From assembly GCA_008932965.1 (NCBI GenBank), contig WBXG01000005.1:1-32000 (forward strand): a stretch of 32,000 bases of DNA, written 5' to 3'. The notes beneath the pieces were generated by a model. It was not told the origin of the DNA. It did no database searches and was given only the letters and a program-made list of their open reading frames with translations. A program made the translations under genes and the position numbers. This stretch comes from Verrucomicrobiota bacterium (lineage in GTDB: Bacteria; Verrucomicrobiota; Verrucomicrobiia; Chthoniobacterales; UBA6821). This document shows, piece by piece, positions 2,515 through 27,696 of the stretch. Position 1 is the stretch's first letter. Each line of letters opens with the position of its first letter.

Positions 2515-2817
2515 AAAAGTCTGCTTTAAAATTTTATGAATGCTAATATTGGAGGGGCTACTTTGAACTATAGAAAGCCTCTGAGACCTATTGAGAGTTT
2601 CATGATGAAGCCGAAGTCAAACCGCTTTAGAAAATTCTAATACATGAACTCAAGCTAGCACAAAGAGACTCAAGTATCGCTTTTCCCCTCTTCAAAACTC
2701 AAAAATGTGAAAGCAGACTTTCTTGAGGAGCTAAACACCCTAATAGCAAAAGTAGAGAAGTTCAATGGGAAAAAGAAAAATTCAGAAGAATAAAGTATTC
2801 TCTCAAGTGTTATCGAT

Positions 2818-2849
2818 TAACCCGGGTATTTTAAACTGATCGTGACGAG
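2818..2849 (-). repeat. Terminal remnant (right-end TIR region) of the MITE-like family
   Basis: taacccgggtattttaaactgatcgtgacgag matches the reverse complement of the copy A right end (taacccgcatatttcatactgatcgtgacgag) at 28 of 32 positions. It lies 14 nt past the HIT gene stop. Confidence 0.6.
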
Positions 2850-2863
2850 TCCCTCTATCGCTT

Positions 2864-3211
2864 TTATCCGGGAGGCCATTCCATCTGGCGCCCACCTAGA
2901 AGATGGAGATGTAAGTGAGGTACCGCCTCTCCCCCTTCTTTTCCATTGTTGATAACAATGCGAAAACCAGATTCAGTGAGATGTTCTATTTCTGCAACTT
3001 TTACTGCAGCTAAGAGTAATCTGCCTAAAATCATCTGATCCTCTGCTGTTGTCTGAGTGATACGTGGGATCGGTTTTTTAGGAACAATGAGAAGGTGTGT
3101 TGGTGCTTGTGGAGCTATATCTCTAAAAGCAATCCAATCCTCTTCTTCTGCGACAATATCGGCAGGAATAGTACGTGCGATAATTTTTTCAAACAGGGTC
3201 ATGGAAGGCAT
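2864..3211 (-). CDS. HIT-family (histidine triad) nucleotide-binding protein
   Basis: 115-aa ORF with the C-terminal histidine triad HLHLHLLGG and a HinT-like N-terminus (LFEKIIARTIPADIV). Confidence 0.88.
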   Translation of the reverse strand: MPSMTLFEKIIARTIPADIVAEEEDWIAFRDIAPQAPTHLLIVPKKPIPRITQTTAEDQMILGRLLLAAVKVAEIEHLTESGFRIVINNGKEGGEAVPHLHLHLLGGRQMEWPPG

Positions 3212-3319
3212 GTCACGGGTAATGGGTATTGGGTAAAAGAAAATGATTGTTGCAGGACTATTTTAAAAAAAAGATTCAAAAATGGTGCTCGTTGCCCATT
3301 ACTTGTTACTACAGTCAAT

Positions 3320-3895
3320 CTAAGAAAGTTCTATTTCGAGTGGCTTTTGATTTTTTCTTTTGTTGAGAAAAAAGTGTGAGCGGCCGTAGCGTCTAATAAA
3401 GTTCACAATTTCTTCACGTAATATGTCGTGACTTCCTAAACGAACTCGATGTTGGAGCTGACGCAAGCAGGGTTCTAGGTCATTAATCTCCAGACGAAGG
3501 CTACTTGATTCAGCGATTTCTTGAAGACGTTTACGTAGGAGGGGAAAAAATACCAGCTCGTAAGCAGTTCCTGCTTCTTGCACAAGCTCTAGAAGTGAGA
3601 GCGATACAGGGGGATCAGGTAGAGAAAATGTGGCAGCAATTGCCTCATATTTTAAAGAGATAAGCAGGTTCTCAATCACCTTTTCTAGTTTCTCAAGAGT
3701 GATGACGGTTCCTTTACACTCTTGTTGAAGGTAAATAGTAATAGCATCTGTGAGCTCTGATGCCATGGACCAATGCTCCTGGCCCGCTCTCTTTGAAGCC
3801 TGTTCTAGCGCTACTATTATCCACTCTTTATTAAAGGAAGCAGAATGGCCTTTAGGAGTAATAACCAATGGTATTCCATGCCGAAGAACGATCAT
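3320..3895 (-). CDS. Hypothetical protein (no recognisable family)
   Basis: 191-aa ORF on the same strand, lying between nrdR and the HIT gene. I recognise no motif. Called on ORF length and operon-like context only. Confidence 0.5.
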   Translation of the reverse strand: MIVLRHGIPLVITPKGHSASFNKEWIIVALEQASKRAGQEHWSMASELTDAITIYLQQECKGTVITLEKLEKVIENLLISLKYEAIAATFSLPDPPVSLSLLELVQEAGTAYELVFFPLLRKRLQEIAESSSLRLEINDLEPCLRQLQHRVRLGSHDILREEIVNFIRRYGRSHFFLNKRKNQKPLEIELS

Positions 3896-3974
3896 TCTTT
3901 TTTAGAGTGAAAAAGTTATTGAAAATTTCATGAGAAGGGGAGGTCTCCAACTTTCTTGAAGCCTGCCGATCTTG

Positions 3975-4439
3975 TCAATATGTCATTGGTGGTTGCTTCA
4001 AGGATTGAATTTCTTCAAGAAATTCTCCTACTTCCTGGAAAGCACGATAGACAGAAGCATAGCGGACATACGCAATCGGGTCAATTTTGCGAAGTTGCTC
4101 CATCACCTGATCGCCGATGAGTTTCGTAGGAATCTCTTGCTGTTGCAACGACTCCAAATTTTGTACAATTTGAGCAATCGCCTCTTCCATCACCTCGAGT
4201 GCAATGGGGCGCTTTTGACATGCTTTAACCAAGCTAGAAAGCAGCTTCTGTCGATCCAAAGACTCACGACGACCATCGCGCTTCACAGCTAGGAGCTCAA
4301 TACGTTCTATCTCTTCGTAGGTTGTGAAGCGATGGTTGCATTGCAAACATTCCCGACGACGACGGATGCTATTTCCTTCTTTAGTAAGACGAGAATCAAT
4401 GACTTTATCGTCGAGTGAATGACACTTGGGGCAGAGCAT
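3975..4439 (-). CDS. nrdR: Transcriptional repressor NrdR
   Basis: Starts MLCPKCHSLDDKVIDSRLTKEGNSIRRRRECLQCNHRFTTYE (zinc ribbon) followed by an ATP-cone. I chose the ATG at 4439. The ORF-track start at 4499 adds 20 non-homologous residues. Confidence 0.9.
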   Translation of the reverse strand: MLCPKCHSLDDKVIDSRLTKEGNSIRRRRECLQCNHRFTTYEEIERIELLAVKRDGRRESLDRQKLLSSLVKACQKRPIALEVMEEAIAQIVQNLESLQQQEIPTKLIGDQVMEQLRKIDPIAYVRYASVYRAFQEVGEFLEEIQSLKQPPMTY

Positions 4440-4586
4440 GTATAAGGCTGAGACTTCTAGTTGAAAAAAGTTAATTAGAAAAGAACACCCAGATCTCAAA
4501 AAACAGAAATCTTTGAATCTATGTTCATTGAAAAGAGATCAGGGATTGACGACTGTTGTGCGTTTCTTGAAGTACATTTTTTTCTC

Positions 4587-4660
4587 CGGAGTCGACGGGA
4601 CTCGAACCCGCAACCCCCGCCGTGACAGGGCGGTGCTCTAACCAATTGAGCTACGACTCC
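4587..4660 (-). tRNA. tRNA-Asp (anticodon GUC), no encoded CCA
   Basis: Hand fold. Acceptor GGAGTCG/CGACTCC, D stem GCTC/GAGC, anticodon stem CCGCC/GGCGG with loop CTGTCAC, T arm GCGGG-TTCGAGT-CCCGT, discriminator G. Confidence 0.93.
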
Positions 4661-4806: not shown

Positions 4807-6279
4807 ATGTCCTATTCTTCTCTTGCTCATTTTGTAAAAACTCTTGAAGAGGCTGGTGAATTGATCCGCATCACTCTTCCCGTAGCGACAGAGCTGCAAA
4901 TTACAGAGTTAGCGAATCGCGAAATGAAGAAGCCAGAAGGAGGAAAGGCGTTGCTTTTTGAAAAACCAACGATCCATGGAGTCATTTCCAAATTTCCTGT
5001 TTTAATCAACGCGATGGGTTCACGCAGGCGGATGGCAATGGCCTTAGGGCTTCATTCGGTGGAAGAACTATCCAGTCAGTTGGAATTCCTGATGAAGGCA
5101 AAACCGCCCAAAACATTCCGTGATGGTCTGACTCTCTTGCGGCAAGGAATCGATCTTGTTCATGCACGTCCCCGTTATGTGAAGCGCGGACCGTGTCAAG
5201 AGGTGGTCTATCGTTTAGATCAGGCGCAAAGTGATTTTTCGCTCAGCAGTCTCCCTATTCTTAAATGCTGGCCTCATGATGGAGGGCGCTTTGTAACCCT
5301 ACCAACAGTTTATACTAAAGACCCTGACACTGGGGATCGTAATATCGGCATGTACCGAATGCAGGTCTATGATGGCTCCACAACCGGAATGCATTGGCAG
5401 GTGCACAAGGTGGCGGCGCGCCATGGAAAGCGTTACTATGAGCGAGGAGAACCGATGCCAGTGGCTGTTGCCTTGGGTGGTGATCCTGTCTTTCCCTTTT
5501 CAGCAATGGCTCCACTTCCAGATGGTATTGATGAAATTCTCTTCGCAGGATTTGCACGCAAACGTTCTGTAGAGCTCGTGAAGTGTATAAGTGTGCCTCT
5601 GGAAGTACCAGCGGAGAGCGATATCGTGATCGAGGGTTTTGTCTATCCAGGGGAAACCCGCCCGGAAGGGCCATTTGGTGATCATACGGGATTTTATACG
5701 CCAGTCGATGACTATCCTGTTTTTCATGTCACCGCAATCACCCATCGTCGTGAAGCCATCTATCCTGCAACTATTGTGGGTGTACCTCCCATGGAAGATT
5801 TTTATATGGGAGAGGCAAGTGTGCGCATTTTTCTTCCTATCTTTAAAATGAATTTTCCAGAGATCGTCGACATGGCCCTGCCTGCAGAAGGAGTCTTTCA
5901 CAATCTTGTTTTTGTGAGTATTCGAAAGCAATACCCTTGGCAGGCATTCAAGGTAATGCATGGCCTCTGGGGAATGGGCCAGATGATGTTTTCGAAATAT
6001 ATCATTGTGGTGGATGAGGATTGTAATGTTCAAAACACTTCCGAAGTGATCTTCCGACTTTGTTCTAATACTGATCCACAGCGCGATAGCATTGTGACTA
6101 AAAATCCCAGTGATAGTCTCGATCATGCCCCAACCATTGCTAATCTGGGATCCCATATGGGATTTGATGCCACAAAAAAACTGCCTGGGGAAGGTTATAC
6201 CCGGGGCTGGCCAGACTTAGTTAAGATGGATCCAGCAGTTGAGGCATGGGCAGATCAGTTTGTTGGATATCCGGGTTAA
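4807..6279 (+). CDS. UbiD-family (prenylated-FMN dependent) aromatic decarboxylase, quinone biosynthesis type
   Basis: 490-aa ORF with the UbiD hallmark block GGRFVTLPTVYTKDPDTGDRNIGMYRMQVYDGSTTGMHWQVHK. The stop codon lies inside the terminal palindrome of repeat copy B. Confidence 0.85.
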   Translation: MSYSSLAHFVKTLEEAGELIRITLPVATELQITELANREMKKPEGGKALLFEKPTIHGVISKFPVLINAMGSRRRMAMALGLHSVEELSSQLEFLMKAKPPKTFRDGLTLLRQGIDLVHARPRYVKRGPCQEVVYRLDQAQSDFSLSSLPILKCWPHDGGRFVTLPTVYTKDPDTGDRNIGMYRMQVYDGSTTGMHWQVHKVAARHGKRYYERGEPMPVAVALGGDPVFPFSAMAPLPDGIDEILFAGFARKRSVELVKCISVPLEVPAESDIVIEGFVYPGETRPEGPFGDHTGFYTPVDDYPVFHVTAITHRREAIYPATIVGVPPMEDFYMGEASVRIFLPIFKMNFPEIVDMALPAEGVFHNLVFVSIRKQYPWQAFKVMHGLWGMGQMMFSKYIIVVDEDCNVQNTSEVIFRLCSNTDPQRDSIVTKNPSDSLDHAPTIANLGSHMGFDATKKLPGEGYTRGWPDLVKMDPAVEAWADQFVGYPG

Positions 6280-6457
6280 CCCGCATATTTGATACCGATT
6301 CTGCTGCGGCTTGCGAACCCCTAATGGATACTGCGTCAGTCTCGAATTGCTCCTCGGGCAGTATGAAACATACAGCCCTGCATCAAAATGCTCGCCTGCC
6401 TTACCCCATCAGCCTTCGCGGCCTCCTCGTCACGATCAGCATGAAACATCCGGGTTA
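6277..6457 (+). mobile_element. MITE-like repeat family, copy B (181 bp, full length)
   Basis: TIRs are taacccgcatatttgat at the left and atgaaacatccgggtta at the right, with TA at both ends. Internal blocks are shared with copies A, D and E. Confidence 0.85.
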
Positions 6458-6473
6458 ATGAGGCTTGTTTTTT

Positions 6474-7265: not shown

Positions 7266-7420
7266 TCATTCGAATATTTCACACTAAATTTATTACAGCT
7301 TGTGAAAAGCTCTATGGCTACTGCGTTAATCTCGAATTGTGATTGGGGTGGTAGGGACTCCTACAGCCGTCATTAGCCTTCGTGGTCTCCTCGTCACGAT
7401 CAGTATGAAAATTCGGGTTA
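7266..7420 (+). mobile_element. MITE-like repeat family, copy C (shorter variant, about 155 bp)
   Basis: The left end cgaatatttcac and the right end cctcgtcacgatcagtatgaaaattcgggtta match the family. The left arm matches the fragment at 168-226. It shares its terminal TA with copy D. Confidence 0.75.
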
Positions 7421-7599
7421 GCCCGAATATTTCATCCCAATCTACTGCGGAAACCGGGAAGTCAGATGGATGCTGCGTTGATCTCGAAGTCTTCCTCGGG
7501 CAGTGTGTATACACACAGCCGTCGTCAGACTTCATCACTCGCCTTGCCCCATGAGCCTTCGCGGTCTCCTCGTCACGATCAGTATGAAAATTCGGGCTA
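7419..7599 (+). mobile_element. MITE-like repeat family, copy D (181 bp, full length)
   Basis: TIRs are tagcccgaatatttcat at the left and atgaaaattcgggcta at the right. There is a central perfect 14-nt palindrome gtgtgtatacacac (7503-7516). The reverse strand is open through the whole element. Confidence 0.88.
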
Positions 7600-7649
7600 G
7601 AGATTCTTTGACTCGTTACCCATTACTCGCTACCGGTTATGTGTCTCAT

Positions 7650-8249
7650 ATGACACTACCTAATCAAATTACTCTTGGTCGGATTTTACTGATTCCCATT
7701 TTTGTGCTCTTAGCTGTCTATTATGGACATAGTGTTGAAGCAGGGGAACCTGAAGAAAAATTACGTATTGCTGCTATTATTGTTTTTTTAGTCGCAGCGC
7801 TTAGCGATGGGGTTGATGGATGGTTAGCACGTCACTTTCGTCTTCAATCTCGCTTAGGGGCTATTCTGGATCCCATTGCTGATAAAGGATTGATGCTAAC
7901 TGCGATCATTACACTGAGTGTGAGTAATTGGGATCGGTCATTACCACTTTGGTTTCCAGTCTTAGTGATTACTCGCGATATCATTATTTTAACCGGATGT
8001 GCTCTGCTTCGTTTTCTCAATGGTTCTCTGGAAATTCGTCCCAGCTCTCTTGGAAAAATTTCTACTTTTTTTCAGATGTTTGCAATCGCAGTGGTATTGC
8101 TGCAGTGGCGTTATTACAGCATTATTGTTGGAATAGCTGGTATTGTTACCTTGCTCAGTGGTATCGGATATATAATCGATGGTGTTCGACTTTTAAAATT
8201 AGGGGGTCATGATAGGCCGACATCGGGAGATGTAATGGGTAATGGGTAA
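7650..8249 (+). CDS. pgsA: CDP-diacylglycerol--glycerol-3-phosphate 3-phosphatidyltransferase (CDP-alcohol phosphatidyltransferase family)
   Basis: Contains the motif DGVDGWLARHFRLQSRLGAILDPIADK. I chose the ATG at 7650 (MTLPNQITLGRILLIP), because the ORF-track start at 7503 lies inside repeat copy D. The last 5 codons and the stop are encoded by the heptamer array. Confidence 0.85.
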   Translation: MTLPNQITLGRILLIPIFVLLAVYYGHSVEAGEPEEKLRIAAIIVFLVAALSDGVDGWLARHFRLQSRLGAILDPIADKGLMLTAIITLSVSNWDRSLPLWFPVLVITRDIIILTGCALLRFLNGSLEIRPSSLGKISTFFQMFAIAVVLLQWRYYSIIVGIAGIVTLLSGIGYIIDGVRLLKLGGHDRPTSGDVMGNG

Positions 8250-8315
8250 TGGGTAATGGGTGGTGAGTGGTGAGTGGTGAGTGGTGAGTAAGGGGTAATG
8301 AGTGATGAGTGATGG
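8232..8315 (+). repeat. Heptanucleotide tandem array 1 (12 units, G-rich on the + strand)
   Basis: Counted by hand: gtaatgg x4, gtggtga x4, then gtaaggg, gtaatga, gtgatga, gtgatgg. Units are reverse complements of units in array 2. Confidence 0.95.
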
Positions 8316-8410
8316 GTTCTAAAGAGCACTATTCATTATCGAACGTAATGTTGAGAAGAGGATTACTCTCAGTACAAATTTCGAAATTTAATTTCATTTC
8401 GATTCTAAAA

Positions 8411-8641
8411 TTACTCCTTACCCATTACCCATCACCCATCACCCATCACCCATCACCCATCACCCATCACCCATCACCCATTACTCCTTACTCCTTACTC
8501 CTTACTCCTTACTCCTTACTCCTTACTCCTTACTCCTTACCCATTACCCATTACCCATTACCCATTACCCATTACCCATTACTCATTACTCATTACTCAT
8601 TACTCATTACTCATTACTCATTACTCATTACTCATTACTCA
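8411..8641 (+). repeat. Heptanucleotide tandem array 2 (33 units in homogeneous blocks, C-rich on the + strand)
   Basis: Counted by hand: ttactcc x1, ttaccca x2, tcaccca x7, ttactcc x8, ttaccca x6, ttactca x9. The array ends 10 nt before the der ATG. Confidence 0.95.
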
Positions 8642-8651
8642 TTCCTTTTTT

Positions 8652-10100
8652 ATGTATCGTGTAGCCATTGTTGGCCGACCTAACGTCGGCAAATCCTCTC
8701 TCTTTAATCGTCTTCTGGGTAGACGTCTTTCTATTGTTCATGACCAACCTGGGGTTACCCGTGACCGGCTTGCAGCAGTGTGTGAAAAAGGAGATATCCC
8801 TTTTGAAATTATCGATACAGGCGGGATTGGAGATGCACCTGACCCTGATTTTGCCGAGGCTACTCATGCCGCAGCCATGGCAGCAATTCAATCTGCAGAC
8901 CTACTTCTCTTTGTGGTTGATGGTCGTGCTGGGGTGACTCCGCTAGATCAAGAATTAGCTCAGCAACTACGTCGAACCGATCGCCCGCTTCTCCTCATTG
9001 TTAATAAAATCGATGAAAAAATGCACGAGTCATTTGTAAGTGATTTTTATGAGCTCGGTTTTGATCAGATTTTAAGCGTGAGTGCAGCCCATGGTGTGGG
9101 ACTGCATCATTTAATGGAGTCTATTGAAAAACATCTTGGGGTATGTGACGAAAAACAATCTCTAGTAAAAGAGGCGATTCCAAAACTTGCTATTGTAGGA
9201 CGCCCTAATGTTGGTAAATCTTCTTTGCTTAACACCATTCTTGGAGAGGAGCGAACTATTGTAAGTCCTATTTCTGGCACAACACGGGATGCTATTGATA
9301 TTCGATGTGACTTAAAAGGGGTTCCCTATTTACTGGTCGATACAGCAGGACTGAGGCATCGATCCAAGCCTGATACCTCAGTGGAGATTTTTAGTGCAAT
9401 GCGAACCCAGGAGGCCTTGCGCCGTGCTGATGTTGGTATTCTTGTTCTTGATGCTACCGTTGATATTACAGCTCAAGATAAACGTATTGCCGGAATACTT
9501 CAGGAATCTTTTAAACCTTGCCTAATTGTTGCCAACAAATGGGATCTTGTTCATAAAGAGGATGGTGGTCGTGCCTCCCAAGGTGAATACGCAGCGATGA
9601 TCCGAAGTGAATTATTTTTTCTCGATTATGCACCGATTATTTGTCTGTCCGCTAAAACCGGTCAGGAAGTAGGACGTCTACTCACCGCCCTTGAAGAAGT
9701 GAGAAAAGCTGCAGAGGTCCGTATCACTACAGGAGAGCTTAATCGATTTTTTAAGGCAGTATGGGAACATCAGCCACCTCCATCACGTGGAGGACGTCGT
9801 TTTAAGCTGCTGTATGCAACTCAGGTTGCTCCCGAAGTGCGCCCTCCATTTCATGCTCCAGAATTTTTGCTCTTCGTCAACGATGCAAAATTAATGACCG
9901 ACTCCTATCATAAGTACCTTCTTCATGCACTTCGCTCGGAGTGGCCTTTTTCAGGACTTCCCATTCGACTGCGTCTTCAGGGAAGGCTCTCTCGCGAAGA
10001 GCAAGATCGCAAGGCTGAAGGAAATGAGCAGCATATTCGAACAAAAATAGAACCGTATGTACTAAAGAGGAATGAAAAAGGAAACCGCTTAGGGGGGTAG
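8652..10100 (+). CDS. der: Ribosome-associated GTPase Der (EngA), two tandem GTPase domains plus a KH-like domain
   Basis: Two G1 motifs, GRPNVGKSSLFN and GRPNVGKSSLLN, each followed by DTGG/DTAG and NKxD motifs. Confidence 0.92.
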   Translation: MYRVAIVGRPNVGKSSLFNRLLGRRLSIVHDQPGVTRDRLAAVCEKGDIPFEIIDTGGIGDAPDPDFAEATHAAAMAAIQSADLLLFVVDGRAGVTPLDQELAQQLRRTDRPLLLIVNKIDEKMHESFVSDFYELGFDQILSVSAAHGVGLHHLMESIEKHLGVCDEKQSLVKEAIPKLAIVGRPNVGKSSLLNTILGEERTIVSPISGTTRDAIDIRCDLKGVPYLLVDTAGLRHRSKPDTSVEIFSAMRTQEALRRADVGILVLDATVDITAQDKRIAGILQESFKPCLIVANKWDLVHKEDGGRASQGEYAAMIRSELFFLDYAPIICLSAKTGQEVGRLLTALEEVRKAAEVRITTGELNRFFKAVWEHQPPPSRGGRRFKLLYATQVAPEVRPPFHAPEFLLFVNDAKLMTDSYHKYLLHALRSEWPFSGLPIRLRLQGRLSREEQDRKAEGNEQHIRTKIEPYVLKRNEKGNRLGG

Positions 10101-14098: not shown

Positions 14099-15880
14099 AT
14101 GCAAAAAAAATGGATTCTTCCTTCTTCGGCAGATTCTAAGCTAGTTGAGAGGCTTGCTAAGGAATTGAAACTACCGCTGGCTCTTACTGAGGTGCTGGTG
14201 CAACGAGGATATGCCTCTGTAGAAGTTGCTACCAATTTTCTCAATCCACGTTTGGCTCAGTTGCGACCTCCTGAGGAGATTCCAAATATTTCTGCGGCAG
14301 CAGATCGTTTGCAAGTGGCATTGCAAAAAAAAGAAAAGATTATTCTTTATGGGGATTATGATGTTGATGGCATTACTTCATTAACCTTGTTGTGTCGCTC
14401 TTTGAGAGCTTTGGGAGGTGACGTTGATTGTTTTATTCCAGAGCGTGCTTCAGAGGGATATGGGCTTAGCAAGGCAGGATTGAAACGGTGTTTTGAAATA
14501 TTCAAGCCAGGCCTTATCGTAGCTGTTGATTGTGGTACAAATTCTTTTGAGGAAGCTCAAATCATCCGGGAACAAAAAATCGATCTTATTGTTGTTGATC
14601 ACCATGAAATTCAAAATAGAGGTCAGGCTAAGATTTTTGACAAAACTTCAATAGTAGTAGAATCAATAGAAACATCATCATGTTTTGTCAAAAATCTTAG
14701 CTTGACCTCTATTTTAGTAAATCCTCAGCTAGGTTCTGACTATCACTATCTTTGTAGTGTTGGCTTGGTTTTCAAGCTCGTTCATGCACTGCTCAAGCGT
14801 TATCCCGCTCCCCCTTTTGACTTACGTGAATATCTTGATCTTGTGGCTTTAGGAACGGTTGCTGATATCGTCCCTCTTACGAAAGAAAATCGTATTTTTG
14901 TGACACATGGTCTCAAGCAGCTAGCTAAATCACGATGGCCGGGAGTAGTAGCTTTAATTAAGATTGCGGAGGTTCAACCCCCCTTTACTACCTATGACGT
15001 AGGTTATAAATTGGGACCTCGTTTAAATGCAGCTGGTCGTCTTTCCTCTGCTTTAGAGGCATTGGAGCTATTGCTCACTGATGATCCTAATACTGCAACT
15101 CGTCTTGCCCATGATTTGGATCTTCGTAACCGTGAACGTCAGCTCATTGAGCGTGCTGTGACCCAAGAGGCAGAGGAATTAGTGACCTCGATTTTTTCAA
15201 CATCCTCTCCTAAAAGCATCGTTTTGGGCCGCTCTCATTGGCATCACGGTGTTGTGGGGATTGTGGCTTCTCGTATTTCAAAACGCTGGCATCGTCCAAC
15301 TCTTATTATTGGTTTTGATGAACAGGGTCTTGGAAAAGGGAGTGGACGGAGTATTGAAGACTTCTCTCTAGTAATGGCTTTAGAAAAGTGCGCTGCTGTT
15401 TTAGAAACTTTTGGAGGGCATGCAATGGCAGCTGGACTCACATTAAAAAAGAAAAATTGTGACATCCTCGCTAGCTCTTTTGAGCAGGCTGCAGAGCTTC
15501 TTCTCACAGAAGAGGAGCTTACTCCTAAATTAAGATTCCATGCAGAAATAAAAACCTCAGAGCTTGATTCCAGTTGGTTGTTGGCACAAGAGAGGCTAGC
15601 CCCGTTTGGTGCAGGAAATGCACAACCGCTTTTTCTGGCTTATTCACTAATTCCGTTGCGAGAGCCACGTCTCTTAAAGGAAAAACATCTTCGTTTTGAA
15701 TTTGCTGGAAAAAAGAATGTTCCCCTCATTGGAATTTTCTTTAATGGCGCTCAAGAGCCCCTTCCAAAGCCACCGTGGGATATTGCTTTTACGCTTATGA
15801 GCAATACTTACCTTGGAAGAACAACGATGCAACTTCAGATTGTTGCGATTCGAACATCCTCGTTATCGCAGTTGATTTAA
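14099..15880 (+). CDS. recJ: Single-stranded-DNA-specific exonuclease RecJ, carrying an in-frame 29-codon palindromic insert
   Basis: DHH-family motifs are present (GDYDVDGITS, VDCGT, VVDHH, GGHAMAAG). The DHH-to-NP spacing is 38 aa here, versus about 13 in E. coli RecJ as I recall it. Confidence 0.92.
   Translation: MQKKWILPSSADSKLVERLAKELKLPLALTEVLVQRGYASVEVATNFLNPRLAQLRPPEEIPNISAAADRLQVALQKKEKIILYGDYDVDGITSLTLLCRSLRALGGDVDCFIPERASEGYGLSKAGLKRCFEIFKPGLIVAVDCGTNSFEEAQIIREQKIDLIVVDHHEIQNRGQAKIFDKTSIVVESIETSSCFVKNLSLTSILVNPQLGSDYHYLCSVGLVFKLVHALLKRYPAPPFDLREYLDLVALGTVADIVPLTKENRIFVTHGLKQLAKSRWPGVVALIKIAEVQPPFTTYDVGYKLGPRLNAAGRLSSALEALELLLTDDPNTATRLAHDLDLRNRERQLIERAVTQEAEELVTSIFSTSSPKSIVLGRSHWHHGVVGIVASRISKRWHRPTLIIGFDEQGLGKGSGRSIEDFSLVMALEKCAAVLETFGGHAMAAGLTLKKKNCDILASSFEQAAELLLTEEELTPKLRFHAEIKTSELDSSWLLAQERLAPFGAGNAQPLFLAYSLIPLREPRLLKEKHLRFEFAGKKNVPLIGIFFNGAQEPLPKPPWDIAFTLMSNTYLGRTTMQLQIVAIRTSSLSQLI
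14621..14707 (+). repeat. 87-bp palindromic element inside recJ (26-nt arms, 35-nt loop)
   Basis: The left arm ggtcaggctaagatttttgacaaaac (14621-14646) pairs with the right arm gttttgtcaaaaatcttagcttgacc (14682-14707), with 25 of 26 positions complementary. It starts on a codon boundary, and 87 nt equals 29 codons. Confidence 0.85.
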
Positions 15881-18937: not shown

Positions 18938-19375
18938 ATGAAGAAAATATTATTACTGCTATGCCTCCTCGGCGCTCTGACTTTTATGCCTGCTAGGGTC
19001 ATGGCCCACTGTCAAATTCCCTGTGGTATTTTTCATGATGGTCTTATTTTTGAAACATTAGAGCAAAACATAGAGACCCTACAAAAAGCCGATCATGAGC
19101 TCAGTGACTCATCTCTTTCTAACAATCAATCGGTGCGTTGGATCTTAAATAAAGAAGCCCAATCTGATCAGATCGCGCAGACAATGTTGACCTATTTTTT
19201 ACAACAACGTATTAAGCTAGATGATCCCAAACGCGCTGAAAAATTAGACCTTATTTCCAAAATTGTGATGCAATGCACCAAAGTAAAACAAACCACAGAT
19301 GCTAAGGAGGTTTTCACTCTTGGTGATGAAATTCAACAACTCAAAGGACTTTCTGGTGTTGTTTTAGCAAAATAG
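18938..19375 (+). CDS. sodN: Nickel superoxide dismutase precursor with a Sec-type signal peptide
   Basis: The Ni-hook HCQIPCG (consensus HCxxPCG) follows a 23-aa leader, MKKILLLLCLLGALTFMPARVMA. The mature length of about 122 aa fits NiSOD. Confidence 0.8.
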   Translation: MKKILLLLCLLGALTFMPARVMAHCQIPCGIFHDGLIFETLEQNIETLQKADHELSDSSLSNNQSVRWILNKEAQSDQIAQTMLTYFLQQRIKLDDPKRAEKLDLISKIVMQCTKVKQTTDAKEVFTLGDEIQQLKGLSGVVLAK

Positions 19376-19470
19376 GGGTCAGTTTCGGCTATTTGGCTAA
19401 TGGAGTGCCAGCTGGGATATTTATGTTATCGAGAAAGGGGAGAGTTCTTGGAAAGTGGTCGCTTCCTTTA

Positions 19471-25341: not shown

Positions 25342-27696
25342 TTAATTTTCCATTTTTGAAACTAAAATCACAACAGAGCGTGATTCTACTAAGTAACTTT
25401 CCGCATTGATGGAAGGGGCTTCTTTCCAAGGGAGGATGTCCTGAGGCGATTCCTTAAAAGTATCAATACAACAACGCCAGGGTGTGTAGAAATTAGTGCA
25501 CAAGGGAATTTCAAATTCTAGAGATTTCCAAAAAGAATTGATCATGATATGAATCATCACTTTGTGATCATAATTACGCATTGTTGCAGCTAAGGCGTGT
25601 GAATCTGCACCTAGGTCAGGAGCATTGAGTTTGACACCATGCCACTCAATGGCTTTTTCGATAAGAAGTTCTCTCAATGTTTGAGCATAGGTGTCACAAA
25701 GATGACTGCGGTCTAAACGAAAATTAATGAGTTGCCGTGTGAATCGATGGATATCGGCATGTTTCTTGAGGAGGGACCAGTCAAAGGATCCGATATCACC
25801 TGCATGACAGTAGGCATTGTTATTTCCTTGTTGAGTACGTCTCACCTCATCACCAGCTAAAATCATTGGTGTTCCTACAGAGAAAAAAAGTATTGTTAAA
25901 AAATTTTTAATTTGTCGATTGCGTAATTTTTCAATTTCAGAATCCTCCGTAGGCCCCTCCATTCCGCAATTCCAGCTGCAATTGAAATTAGATCCATCGC
26001 GGTTGTTTTCTTGATTAGCTTCATTATGCTTTTCATTATAGCTCACCAGATCATTGAGAGTAAAACCATCGTGACAGGTAATAAAATTGACGCTCTGTTC
26101 AGGGTTTCTCTCTTCATTTTCATAAATATCTGGGCTCCCTGTCATGCGGTAAGCAAGAGATCTAATAGTATTATTATCTCCTTTAATAAAAGAGCGAACA
26201 TCATCACGAAAATGTCCATTCCACTCATTCCAGGAATCTCCAGGAAAATGTCCCACTTGGTACAGTCCGGCAGCATCCCATGCCTCTGCAAATAACTTAA
26301 TGTTTGCTAGTACAGGATCGGATTCGATATCCCAGATAGTAGGAGGATGAGCCATGGGAGTTCCTGATTCATCACGAGAGAGAATAGAGGCTAGATCAAA
26401 ACGAAAACCATCGATATGCATCTCATCAACCCAATAACGAAGAGAGTCAAGAATGAGACGACGCACAATAGATTCATTAGCGTTGAAGGTATTTCCACAA
26501 CCACTAAAGTCAGCATAGGTTGCTTTATCTTTTCCTAAAATATAGTAGGTTTCATTGCCAAGTCCACGGAAAGAGAGTGTAGGGCCATGAAGGCCTCCTT
26601 CCGTAGTGTGATTAAAAACGACATCGAGAATTACTTCAATGTTTGCACGATGCAGTGCTTTGACCATGGAACGAAATTCATCTAATACGGCTAATGGCTC
26701 TTTTTTTGAGGAATACTGAGGATGCGGTGCAAAAAAAGCATAGGGTTGATAGCCCCATATATTAGAAAGGCCATCGGGTGCGTCTTCCGGGTCAAAGGCA
26801 AAGATCGGGAGTAATTCCACAGCAGTGATTCCAAGCTCTTTTAAATAGGGGATTTTTTCAATAACTCCAGCATAGGTACCTCTTTTTTCAGGAGAGAGAC
26901 CAGAATTAGGATTGCTAGTGAATGTCCCAATATTCATTTCGTAAATAACTGTTTTACATAAAGGATGGCGCAAAGGCAAATCACCCTCCCAATCGTAAGA
27001 TTTAGAATGAACAACTACATTTTTTATCGCAGTAACACAATTATCCCCTGGTGCTGCAGCAGCTTTACGGGAACGAGAAGAAGGGAGAGCTATACATTTT
27101 CCATAAGGATCAAGTAATACTTTTTCAGAGTCAAAGCGAAGTCCCTCCTTGCTATTAAAGGGACCATACATACGCCAAGCATAAATTTGGCCCTCTTTCA
27201 GACCAGGTACAAAAACATGCCAATAATGATAAGATCTATTTTGCTGGGTTGTAAGTGGAATCACTTTCGAGGGCTTGGTATCCTCAATATGATCAAAAAG
27301 CAGCAACTCCGCCTGCTTTGCATGTTTTGAAAAGATGCTAAAGTTAACGCCATGCTTAAATACAGTGGCTCCAAGTGGAAAACTTCTCCCCGTCTCCTTG
27401 CCAAATGCTGCTCTTGAAACTAATCCAGATATTTCATGCTCATCACCTACAACAATTGGGGAGCCAGATGGATGCTGCGATGAGCTCAAAGTAGTGCTCT
27501 GGCAGTGTATGCTTGCACCTAGGTCGTCAGACTTCATCACATATCCTGACCCATCAGGCTTCGCAGCCTCCTCGTCACGATCAGTATGAAATATCTCAGT
27601 GAGCTGGGAGGACTCCATGTTTACCTCCTTGGGTTTATTCAAGGACTGAGCGCTAGGAGCTGCTCCAGGGATATTCTTTGTGGTAAGATCTGTCAT
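25342..27696 (-). CDS. glgX: Glycogen debranching enzyme GlgX with a repeat-derived N-terminal extension
   Basis: GH13 debranching core beginning FPLGATVFKHGVNFSIFSKHAKQAELLLFD at about residue 105, with GFRFDLAS and EAWD motifs. About 100 extra N-terminal residues include a translated copy of the MITE-like repeat. An alternative start is the ATG at 27537, inside the repeat. Confidence 0.88.
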   Translation of the reverse strand: MTDLTTKNIPGAAPSAQSLNKPKEVNMESSQLTEIFHTDRDEEAAKPDGSGYVMKSDDLGASIHCQSTTLSSSQHPSGSPIVVGDEHEISGLVSRAAFGKETGRSFPLGATVFKHGVNFSIFSKHAKQAELLLFDHIEDTKPSKVIPLTTQQNRSYHYWHVFVPGLKEGQIYAWRMYGPFNSKEGLRFDSEKVLLDPYGKCIALPSSRSRKAAAAPGDNCVTAIKNVVVHSKSYDWEGDLPLRHPLCKTVIYEMNIGTFTSNPNSGLSPEKRGTYAGVIEKIPYLKELGITAVELLPIFAFDPEDAPDGLSNIWGYQPYAFFAPHPQYSSKKEPLAVLDEFRSMVKALHRANIEVILDVVFNHTTEGGLHGPTLSFRGLGNETYYILGKDKATYADFSGCGNTFNANESIVRRLILDSLRYWVDEMHIDGFRFDLASILSRDESGTPMAHPPTIWDIESDPVLANIKLFAEAWDAAGLYQVGHFPGDSWNEWNGHFRDDVRSFIKGDNNTIRSLAYRMTGSPDIYENEERNPEQSVNFITCHDGFTLNDLVSYNEKHNEANQENNRDGSNFNCSWNCGMEGPTEDSEIEKLRNRQIKNFLTILFFSVGTPMILAGDEVRRTQQGNNNAYCHAGDIGSFDWSLLKKHADIHRFTRQLINFRLDRSHLCDTYAQTLRELLIEKAIEWHGVKLNAPDLGADSHALAATMRNYDHKVMIHIMINSFWKSLEFEIPLCTNFYTPWRCCIDTFKESPQDILPWKEAPSINAESYLVESRSVVILVSKMEN
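27421..27601 (+). mobile_element. MITE-like repeat family, copy E (181 bp, diverged), embedded antisense in the glgX reading frame
   Basis: The left end taatccagatatttcat, the internal block ccagatggatgctgcg, and ggcttcgcagcctcctcgtcacgatcagtatgaaatat align with copies A, B and D at the same spacing. Confidence 0.8.

Follow-up and report, generated by a model that had tools for sequence, protein, structure and literature searches.

How does the gene of a DNA-repair exonuclease come to carry a long palindrome only a few nucleotides behind the codons of its catalytic motif and still read as an intact gene? The question is posed by recJ on contig WBXG01000005.1 of a Verrucomicrobiota bacterium (GCA_008932965.1), of which positions 1 to 32,000 were analyzed; this stretch of 32,000 nucleotides is called the window here. 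The palindrome is very probably a copy of a dispersed, non-autonomous, REPIN-like mobile doublet that is linked to a transposase of the RAYT/TIRYT kind (RAYT stands for REP-associated tyrosine transposase and REP for repetitive extragenic palindrome) and is tolerated in a loop of RecJ. The host gene and the parts of the element are the following:

14099..15880, plus strand: recJ, coding for a single-stranded-DNA-specific 5'-3' exonuclease of 593 aa, the host gene of the element (open reading frame, Pfam, RecJ matches in the PDB)
14597..14605, plus strand: codons of the DHH motif (D167-H168-H169), 7 nt upstream of the element (translation, invariant alignment columns)
14613..14646, plus strand: arm 1 of the palindrome, AAAATAGAGGTCAGGCTAAGATTTTTGACAAAAC, which contains the family core GGTCAGGCTA and codes for QNRGQAKIFDKT (inverted-repeat search; nhmmer profile of the family arms, E = 1.4e-10)
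14647..14681, plus strand: 35-nt spacer, the loop of the hairpin, which codes for the variable middle of the inserted peptide (inverted-repeat search)
14682..14715, plus strand: arm 2 of the palindrome, GTTTTGTCAAAAATCTTAGCTTGACCTCTATTTT, which apart from one G.T is the reverse complement of arm 1 and codes for CFVKNLSLTSIL (nhmmer profile of the family arms, E = 4.7e-9, minus strand)

The gene features the Pfam domains DHH (9e-20), RecJ_OB (1e-16), and DHHA1 (5e-12), and RecJ chains of the PDB match it at 2e-69 to 3e-51. The catalytic columns D86, D88, D144, D167, H168, H169, and G439-G440-H441 are invariant in an alignment of 20 homologs including that of the window. The DHH, DHHA1, and OB domains and the catalytic motifs that characterize RecJ are all present, in line with the preliminary description—made from the letters of the window only—in which the rest of recJ was intact. 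As judged by its sequence, the open reading frame (ORF) with its insert is an intact gene of a Chthoniobacterales-like verrucomicrobium.

The palindrome has a total length of 103 bp (14613-14715), with 34-nt arms that are complementary at 33 of 34 positions (97%) and a spacer of 35 nt; a G.T is the only non-Watson-Crick position between the arms. A stretch of 115 nt around it folds with -49.5 kcal/mol as RNA (z = -13.6) and with -31.6 kcal/mol as DNA (z = -11.1), and in both cases none of 200 shuffles is as good. The inverted repeat is thus present far beyond chance. Within the window, the arm sequence has no other match at up to three mismatches, with 0 expected from 100 shuffles. An inverted repeat behind the DHH motif was already part of the preliminary description and is confirmed, with different boundaries: the arms had been given as 26 nt and the element as 87 bp at 14621-14707. 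The further claim of an exact in-frame insertion of 29 codons starting on a codon boundary is an artefact of these boundaries, since 103 bp is not a multiple of three. Of the six reading frames, a single one stays open through the element, namely that of recJ. In copies of the family generally, two frames are open through arm 1 and a single one through arm 2, and the open frame yields the recurrent peptide NRGQAK…FV.NLSLTPI. An intein or intron was considered and rejected: the insert is a 103-bp palindrome that lacks signatures of splicing or inteins, and taking it out would put the gene out of frame.

Repeats with the same arm occur at many further loci. In a genome scan with one genome per species, the degenerate arm pattern GNGGNCAGGCTANNANTNTTGACAA finds 24 loci, all of them in six metagenome-assembled genomes (MAGs) of Chthoniobacterales/Verrucomicrobiia. 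The MAG Deming_bin.170 carries at least 15 complete doublets of ~100 bp and several single arms, distributed over 13 contigs, and also encodes a RecJ of 77% identity (P0004). A typical copy consists of 33-nt arms, (A)AATAGGGGTCAGGCTAAGAATATTGACAAAA and its reverse complement, with 0-1 mismatches between them and a total length of ~100 bp; across the copies, arms range from 33 to 40 nt and spacers from 31 to 46 nt. Most copies in the related MAG are intergenic. Neither a target-site duplication nor a common target is found in the flanks of the recJ copy or of other family copies. Among 11 distinct copies, pairing holds for 97.7% of the arm cells, and both partners have changed in 9 of 31 pairs; the observed value is reached by 0 of 500 shuffles on any of five measures, and slid controls collapse. 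An nhmmer profile built from the family arms yields three matches in the window, namely both recJ arms and a 14-nt fragment described further below.

The palindrome also extends beyond the shared core in several copies, with copy-specific bases that are still complementary (L017 103-217, L027 6067-6177, L029 4458-4570, L036 6364-6466); examples are CAAATGG…CCATTTG, AATAA…TTATT, and GGCAAA…TTTGCC. Such extensions are not expected of a fixed-ended cut-and-paste element and hint at small palindromic targets or fold-back copying. A second in-frame copy lies in a related MAG in the middle of a 626-aa ORF of a PMT-family glycosyltransferase (L025 3503-3616; ORF 2720-4597, minus strand), where it codes for the peptide KNRGQARILDK…YFVKNSSLTPIF. 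In metagenomes, the arm pattern finds six loci, none in recJ. A metagenome scan with the pattern of the recJ junction, TAGNNTGNCCNCNATTTTRGTAAATCC, gives no match, although L002 from a JGI metagenome should match; evidently, these contigs are not part of the collection scanned. A profile of the element peptide (padded query) against a set of 5.8 billion proteins gives 59 word candidates and none at E <= 0.01, at a power too low to gauge how often the element is translated.

Copies of the family lie beside a transposase gene. In related MAGs, a single arm is located directly upstream of ORFs of 344 and 351 aa (L014 and L023), which match Pfam Y1_Tnp at 4.8e-12 and 1.1e-9. In NCBIfam, both score highest against the REP-associated tyrosine transposase (REP_Tyr_transpos), with 63 and 53 bits as compared with 19 bits for IS200. 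The protein features an HUH motif (NHYHLF), a tyrosine motif (YIHLNPV), and a long C-terminal extension. At L023—which belongs to Deming_bin.170, the MAG with the many doublets—the layout is an arm of ~30 nt, the gene, and downstream an inverted arm-loop-arm doublet. Two further elements of 172-180 bp (L020, L034) consist of arms around a short internal remnant of the transposase gene, …HAWVLTSNHYHLFIE…. The family arms read GGGGTCAG and fit the published motif of terminal inverted repeats (TIRs), GGGGWSAS; arm 1 of the window carries the variant GAGGTCAG at this position. Y1 enzymes such as those of the IS200/IS605 family are expected to leave no target-site duplication, so the absence of one at the family copies is as expected. 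Within the reading given at the outset, the Y1 transposase would mobilize an element of two inverted arms of ~33 nt and a spacer of ~35 nt, which can form a long hairpin in single-stranded DNA or RNA, via a single-stranded hairpin intermediate and without target-site duplication.

An alignment of RecJ orthologs features both filled and empty sites. The homologs P0002, P0003, and P0004 (89, 86, and 77% identity) carry the same insert, and most homologs of 55-70% identity lack it. Together with the RecJ of the window, the insert-bearing proteins (77-100% amino acid identity) form a clade with 93% bootstrap, next to an insert-free sister clade of P0006 and P0008 (85% support). From DHH to VNPQ, filled sites measure 44 codons and empty sites 19 in the sister clade and 21 elsewhere; hence, the net gain is 25 codons relative to the sister clade and 23 relative to other insert-free orthologs. 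The 38 residues between DHH and NP of the preliminary description are correct, with 13 to 15 in insert-free relatives. Two outcomes that it had named as speaking against a selfish insert—a homologous, non-palindromic segment in unrelated RecJ proteins and a genome-unique palindrome from local duplication-inversion—were not found.

At the DNA level, the four recJ copies (window, L001, L004, L005) align gap-free over 115 nt and have a recJ-specific arm variant, TAARATTTTTGAC, in common; other copies in the MAG of L005 read TAAGAATATTGAC. The four spacers share 70-78% identity with one another and 50-66% with those of other family copies. Because of the gap-free alignment, the shared arm variant, and the identity of the spacers, the four inserts are regarded as orthologous, that is, shared by descent. 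The insertion would have taken place in an ancestor of a small clade of Chthoniobacterales, with one copy entering the variable loop that connects the DHH strand of RecJ to the strand after it.

An AlphaFold2 model built from a 20-sequence alignment (mean predicted local distance difference test [pLDDT] of 82, predicted template modeling score of 0.80) places the insert as a low-confidence excursion from a confident core. Residues 175-202 have a pLDDT below 50 (~30) and lie between the strands 162-166 (…VVDHH) and 205-207. The insert is therefore predicted to be a disordered loop behind DHH that points away from the fold. The enzyme would tolerate the net 23-25 added residues because they are predicted to be disordered and to point off the fold. 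The copies elsewhere, the filled and empty sites, and the predicted structure together support the earlier proposal of a selfish in-frame palindrome tolerated in the post-DHH loop.

The arms of the orthologous copies change in pairs. Between the window and L005, recJ differs at 25.6% of nucleotides over the gene and at 45.6% of third codon positions; the arms differ at three positions in arm 1 and five in arm 2 (~12-15%). All three differences in arm 1 are synonymous (AGA>AGG, GGT>GGG, AAG>AAA), and all three are mirrored by complementary changes in arm 2, which change the encoded residues (S>P, T>P, L>F). The probability of this mirroring is 6e-5 to 2e-4 if the arms are independent, and if eight substitutions fell at random on the two arms of a perfect palindrome, the chance of ending up with no more than one non-pair would be ~5e-5. 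The stem of L005 is perfect, with 35 of 35 pairs. The claim of paired change rests on this pairwise calculation and on the family-wide count given above, and suggests that the arms are homogenized in place. A function of the insert at the level of the protein was considered and rejected in view of the predicted disorder, the variable middle, and arm-2 residues that change following synonymous changes in arm 1.

Template-switch mutagenesis at quasi-palindromes is known from E. coli genetics. This process transfers a change in one arm to its partner and restores a perfect palindrome, which would yield the pattern seen here; unlike the repeat family, it is a mutational process and not an element, and it would only by extrapolation operate in these organisms. 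After the insertion, complementarity would have been kept up by paired changes, most likely through arm-to-arm copying by template switching or hairpin-directed repair, with two lineages letting the palindrome decay instead. A general arm-to-arm copying at the quasi-palindrome is favored over a function specific to recJ because the same covariation marks the whole family, including the intergenic copies.

Several observations weigh against a mobile doublet that inserted into recJ and was kept palindromic there. The site is not accounted for by a simple insertion, since the element takes the place of 21 nt of the sister-clade loop instead of lengthening it. This loop consists of exactly seven codons (DPDQLPP or DKAHLPP) at the position of the element (L007 ~650-710, L009 ~1290-1350), and its LPP-ILVNP resembles the element-encoded SL(T/P)P-ILVNP (CCTGCCACCCATTTT in L009 vs CCTGCCCCCTATTTT in L005). 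The resemblance is suggestive only: the sister-clade loop may be a deletion remnant of the element, in which case the insertion predates the split. In addition, the 32-kb window holds one full copy and a 14-nt fragment and has no transposase gene in view. The NCBIfam scores of the transposase lie under the curated cut-off (63 bits vs 80), and a sequence search of the PDB with it gives no match at E <= 0.01. A formal covariation test of the four orthologs does not reach significance either: with three double-sided pairs, the observed values are equaled in 44-76 of 500 shuffles. The upkeep of the palindrome is not universal: L001 and L004 have 5-6 non-Watson-Crick positions (six in L001) and minimum free energies of -31 and -44 kcal/mol vs -51 and -60 kcal/mol.

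The same data bear on a domesticated hairpin, whose stem would be kept by selection for a use to the host or to the element family: it might adjust the expression of recJ through RNase III or ribosome pausing, or serve as a binding site that links transposase and exonuclease. This explanation is improbable. The stem that is perfect in L005 and near-perfect in the window despite the divergence of the gene, at the cost of amino acid changes in arm 2, would fit it, and so would arms that diverge far less than the third codon positions (~12-15% vs 46%). Read on the sense strand, some of the departures from pairing are G.U or U.G, and among the orthologs a certain pair occurs as G-C, G.U, and A-U. 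Moreover, a frequent occurrence of intragenic REPs in genes of replication and repair has been reported (PMC3733652). Set against this are the decaying stems of L001 and L004, the non-significant four-ortholog test, and the family-wide covariation, which needs no function specific to recJ. An Rfam scan of the whole window gives four tRNAs only at the gathering score and no match at the palindrome, and a terminator and promoter scan around recJ gives nothing at the element, the loop of which exceeds the length that this scanner handles.

A bolder version is equally doubtful and would combine two parts: that the recJ hairpin is kept perfect in place over the long term by selection or a dedicated conversion, and that the RecJ loop received this family on two or more occasions, with a second repeat family entering next to it in other lineages. 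If true, this would mean a functional link between elements that pass through single-strand hairpins and the single-strand exonuclease of the host. The insert might then tune RecJ so that hairpin or single-stranded-DNA intermediates of transposition survive, or the site might switch recJ in a regulated manner by way of RNase III or pausing.

A separate insertion into recJ in each lineage, with a preferred target and with perfect arms as the mark of young copies, is very unlikely. In its favor is a distant RecJ, P0015 (L006), which groups with the insert clade in 0 of 100 bootstraps and which nevertheless carries a 96-bp copy with perfect 28-nt arms and the same right junction (…ATT|TTAGTAAATCC). 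The arm of this copy belongs to another subfamily (…GCTACAAATCTTGAC…) that is also present at the unrelated loci L038 and L040, and in the metagenome scan its arm type is likewise found outside recJ; the similarity of its spacer to the window type is at background. The most economical reading of L006 is a second, independent hit on the same RecJ loop. For the four copies of the insert clade, the common recJ-specific arm variant, the mutual spacer identity, the gap-free alignment, and monophyly contradict separate insertions.

A single arm at L040 1715-1739 (metagenome contig Ga0194116_10001932, 64% GC) is identical over ~30 nt (TGGGGTCAGGCTACAAATCTTGACAAAAAG) to the recJ arm of L006 (2857-2890), and L006 stems from a relative of much lower GC content than the L040 contig. 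This arm is either extremely conserved or moving between genomes.

An origin on the spot, as an inverted duplication of the RecJ loop by template switching without any mobile element, is scarcely tenable: the net gain of 69 nt relative to most insert-free orthologs equals one arm plus spacer, and at its right end, CCNCNATTTT, arm 2 is similar to the empty sister-clade loop, CCTCCAATTTT, but the same arm occurs at dozens of unrelated loci in six MAGs, also beside the transposase gene, and the family-arm profile matches both recJ arms (E = 1e-10 and 5e-9).

The stretch of RecJ behind DHH carries other inserts as well. In the RecJ proteins P0015, P0006, P0008, and P0013, a different and larger insert, 45-60 aa long, closely follows the LVNPQ codons and so lies a few codons past the site of the palindrome (L006 ~2960-3090, L007 ~710-900, L009 ~1350-1500, L011 ~5560-5730), and several of these second inserts contain strong hairpins. 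Since four other lineages carry such further inserts nearby, this stretch is a recurrent landing place for repeats. The second insert of P0013 contains a 95-nt piece (76% identity; L011 5608-5701) of a 181-bp family that is also found in the window at 1-175, 6285-6465, 7280-7430, 7426-7610, and 27420-27610. This family occurs at 72-90% identity in L001, L004, L009, L015, L030, L032, L034, and L036 as well. It is a second, separate dispersed repeat and is unrelated to the palindrome, as had been proposed from the window.

Two further features of the window concern repeats. The first is the fragment matched by the arm profile:

19369..19382, plus strand: possible remnant of another family copy, AAAATAGGGGTCAG, equal to the outer 14 nt of the family arm (nhmmer E = 0.033, weak evidence alone)

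This fragment overlaps an ORF at 18938..19375, which synteny with L001 marks as sodN-like, and provides the TAG stop of that ORF. The second consists of 7-nt tandem arrays at 8232-8320 and 8383-8681 (GTAATGG; ACCCATT/ACTCCTT/ACTCATT), which form an inverted pair of arrays ~100-190 nt apart and overlap the predicted ORFs 7503..8249 and 8309..8683.

The recJ copy offers a clear and datable example of a transposase-associated hairpin repeat in an intact DNA-repair gene of a little-studied phylum. Being both orthologous and constrained by coding, it constitutes a natural experiment on how a palindrome is kept up after its movement has stopped, by arm-to-arm copying or by selection. The post-DHH loop of RecJ presents itself as a permissive site, with at least two insertions of this family and other repeats just downstream—of use for annotation and for RecJ engineering.

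Among known systems, in-frame palindromic insertion has precedents in other bacteria. Intragenic REPs are described in replication and repair genes (uvrA, uvrB, recB, dnaE2, DNA ligase), with most of them in the verrucomicrobium Opitutus terrae (PMC3733652). The recJ element resembles them as a palindromic repeat or dimer inside an intact gene of DNA metabolism in a verrucomicrobium, translated into extra residues that shorter homologs lack, but it belongs to a different repeat family without the GTAG/CGTC tags. In the parts of the text and supplementary files of PMC3733652 that were covered, recJ does not appear among the targets of intragenic REPs. Rickettsia palindromic elements (RPEs) lie in frame in protein-coding genes (Ogata et al. 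2000, as described in PMC10969869 and PMC3733652). As far as these accounts go, the likeness lies in a selfish palindromic repeat of ~100-150 bp in frame, a conserved added peptide, and retention across species. RPEs differ in that they occur in an unrelated phylum and have no known dedicated transposase, and the present family is mostly intergenic in the MAG; the likeness is one of description. A classical miniature inverted-repeat transposable element derived from a DDE transposon was rejected: TIRs are present, but there is no target-site duplication, and the associated enzyme is of the Y1 and not the DDE type.

REPINs are REP doublets that form a hairpin and are mobilized by a RAYT, as described in Pseudomonas fluorescens SBW25 (Bertels & Rainey 2011, PMC3116915). 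The recJ element shares with them two inverted units and a spacer, a length of ~100 bp, and a long hairpin (z = -11 to -14 in the window). In the related MAG the family has many copies, with at least 15 doublets, and across the family the arms covary between copies. Likewise, the repeats flank a Y1/HUH gene in related MAGs whose best family match is the REP-associated tyrosine transposase. Unlike REPs, the family arms are long (~33 nt) and have no clear internal palindromic core—their self-complementarity is limited to a 4-bp pair (GTCA…TGAC)—and neither of the tags GTAG and CGTC; they look like long TIRs. The transposase of 344-351 aa also differs by its score under the curated RAYT cut-off and its long C-terminal extension, and the recJ copy lies within a gene, in contrast to the extragenic location that is part of the definition of REPINs.

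TIRtrons, with their TIRYT genes, are RAYT-like genes flanked by long TIRs, a subset of which carry the motif GGGGWSAS, and their TIR families form dimers (Di Nocera et al. 2013, PMC3733652). The present family matches them in the RAYT-like gene of L023, which lies between long inverted repeats unrelated to GTAG REPs, in the arm motif GGGGTCAG, and in units that occur as dimers and clusters in moderately abundant families. The published members come from Stenotrophomonas, Acidobacteria, and others, and the membership proposed here is by motif and architecture. In the parts of the literature covered, an element of this type is not described in this phylum and this gene. It is not a new kind of system: as judged by arms, motif, and gene layout, the element in recJ is a REPIN-like doublet and, more precisely, one of the TIRtron/TIRYT type.

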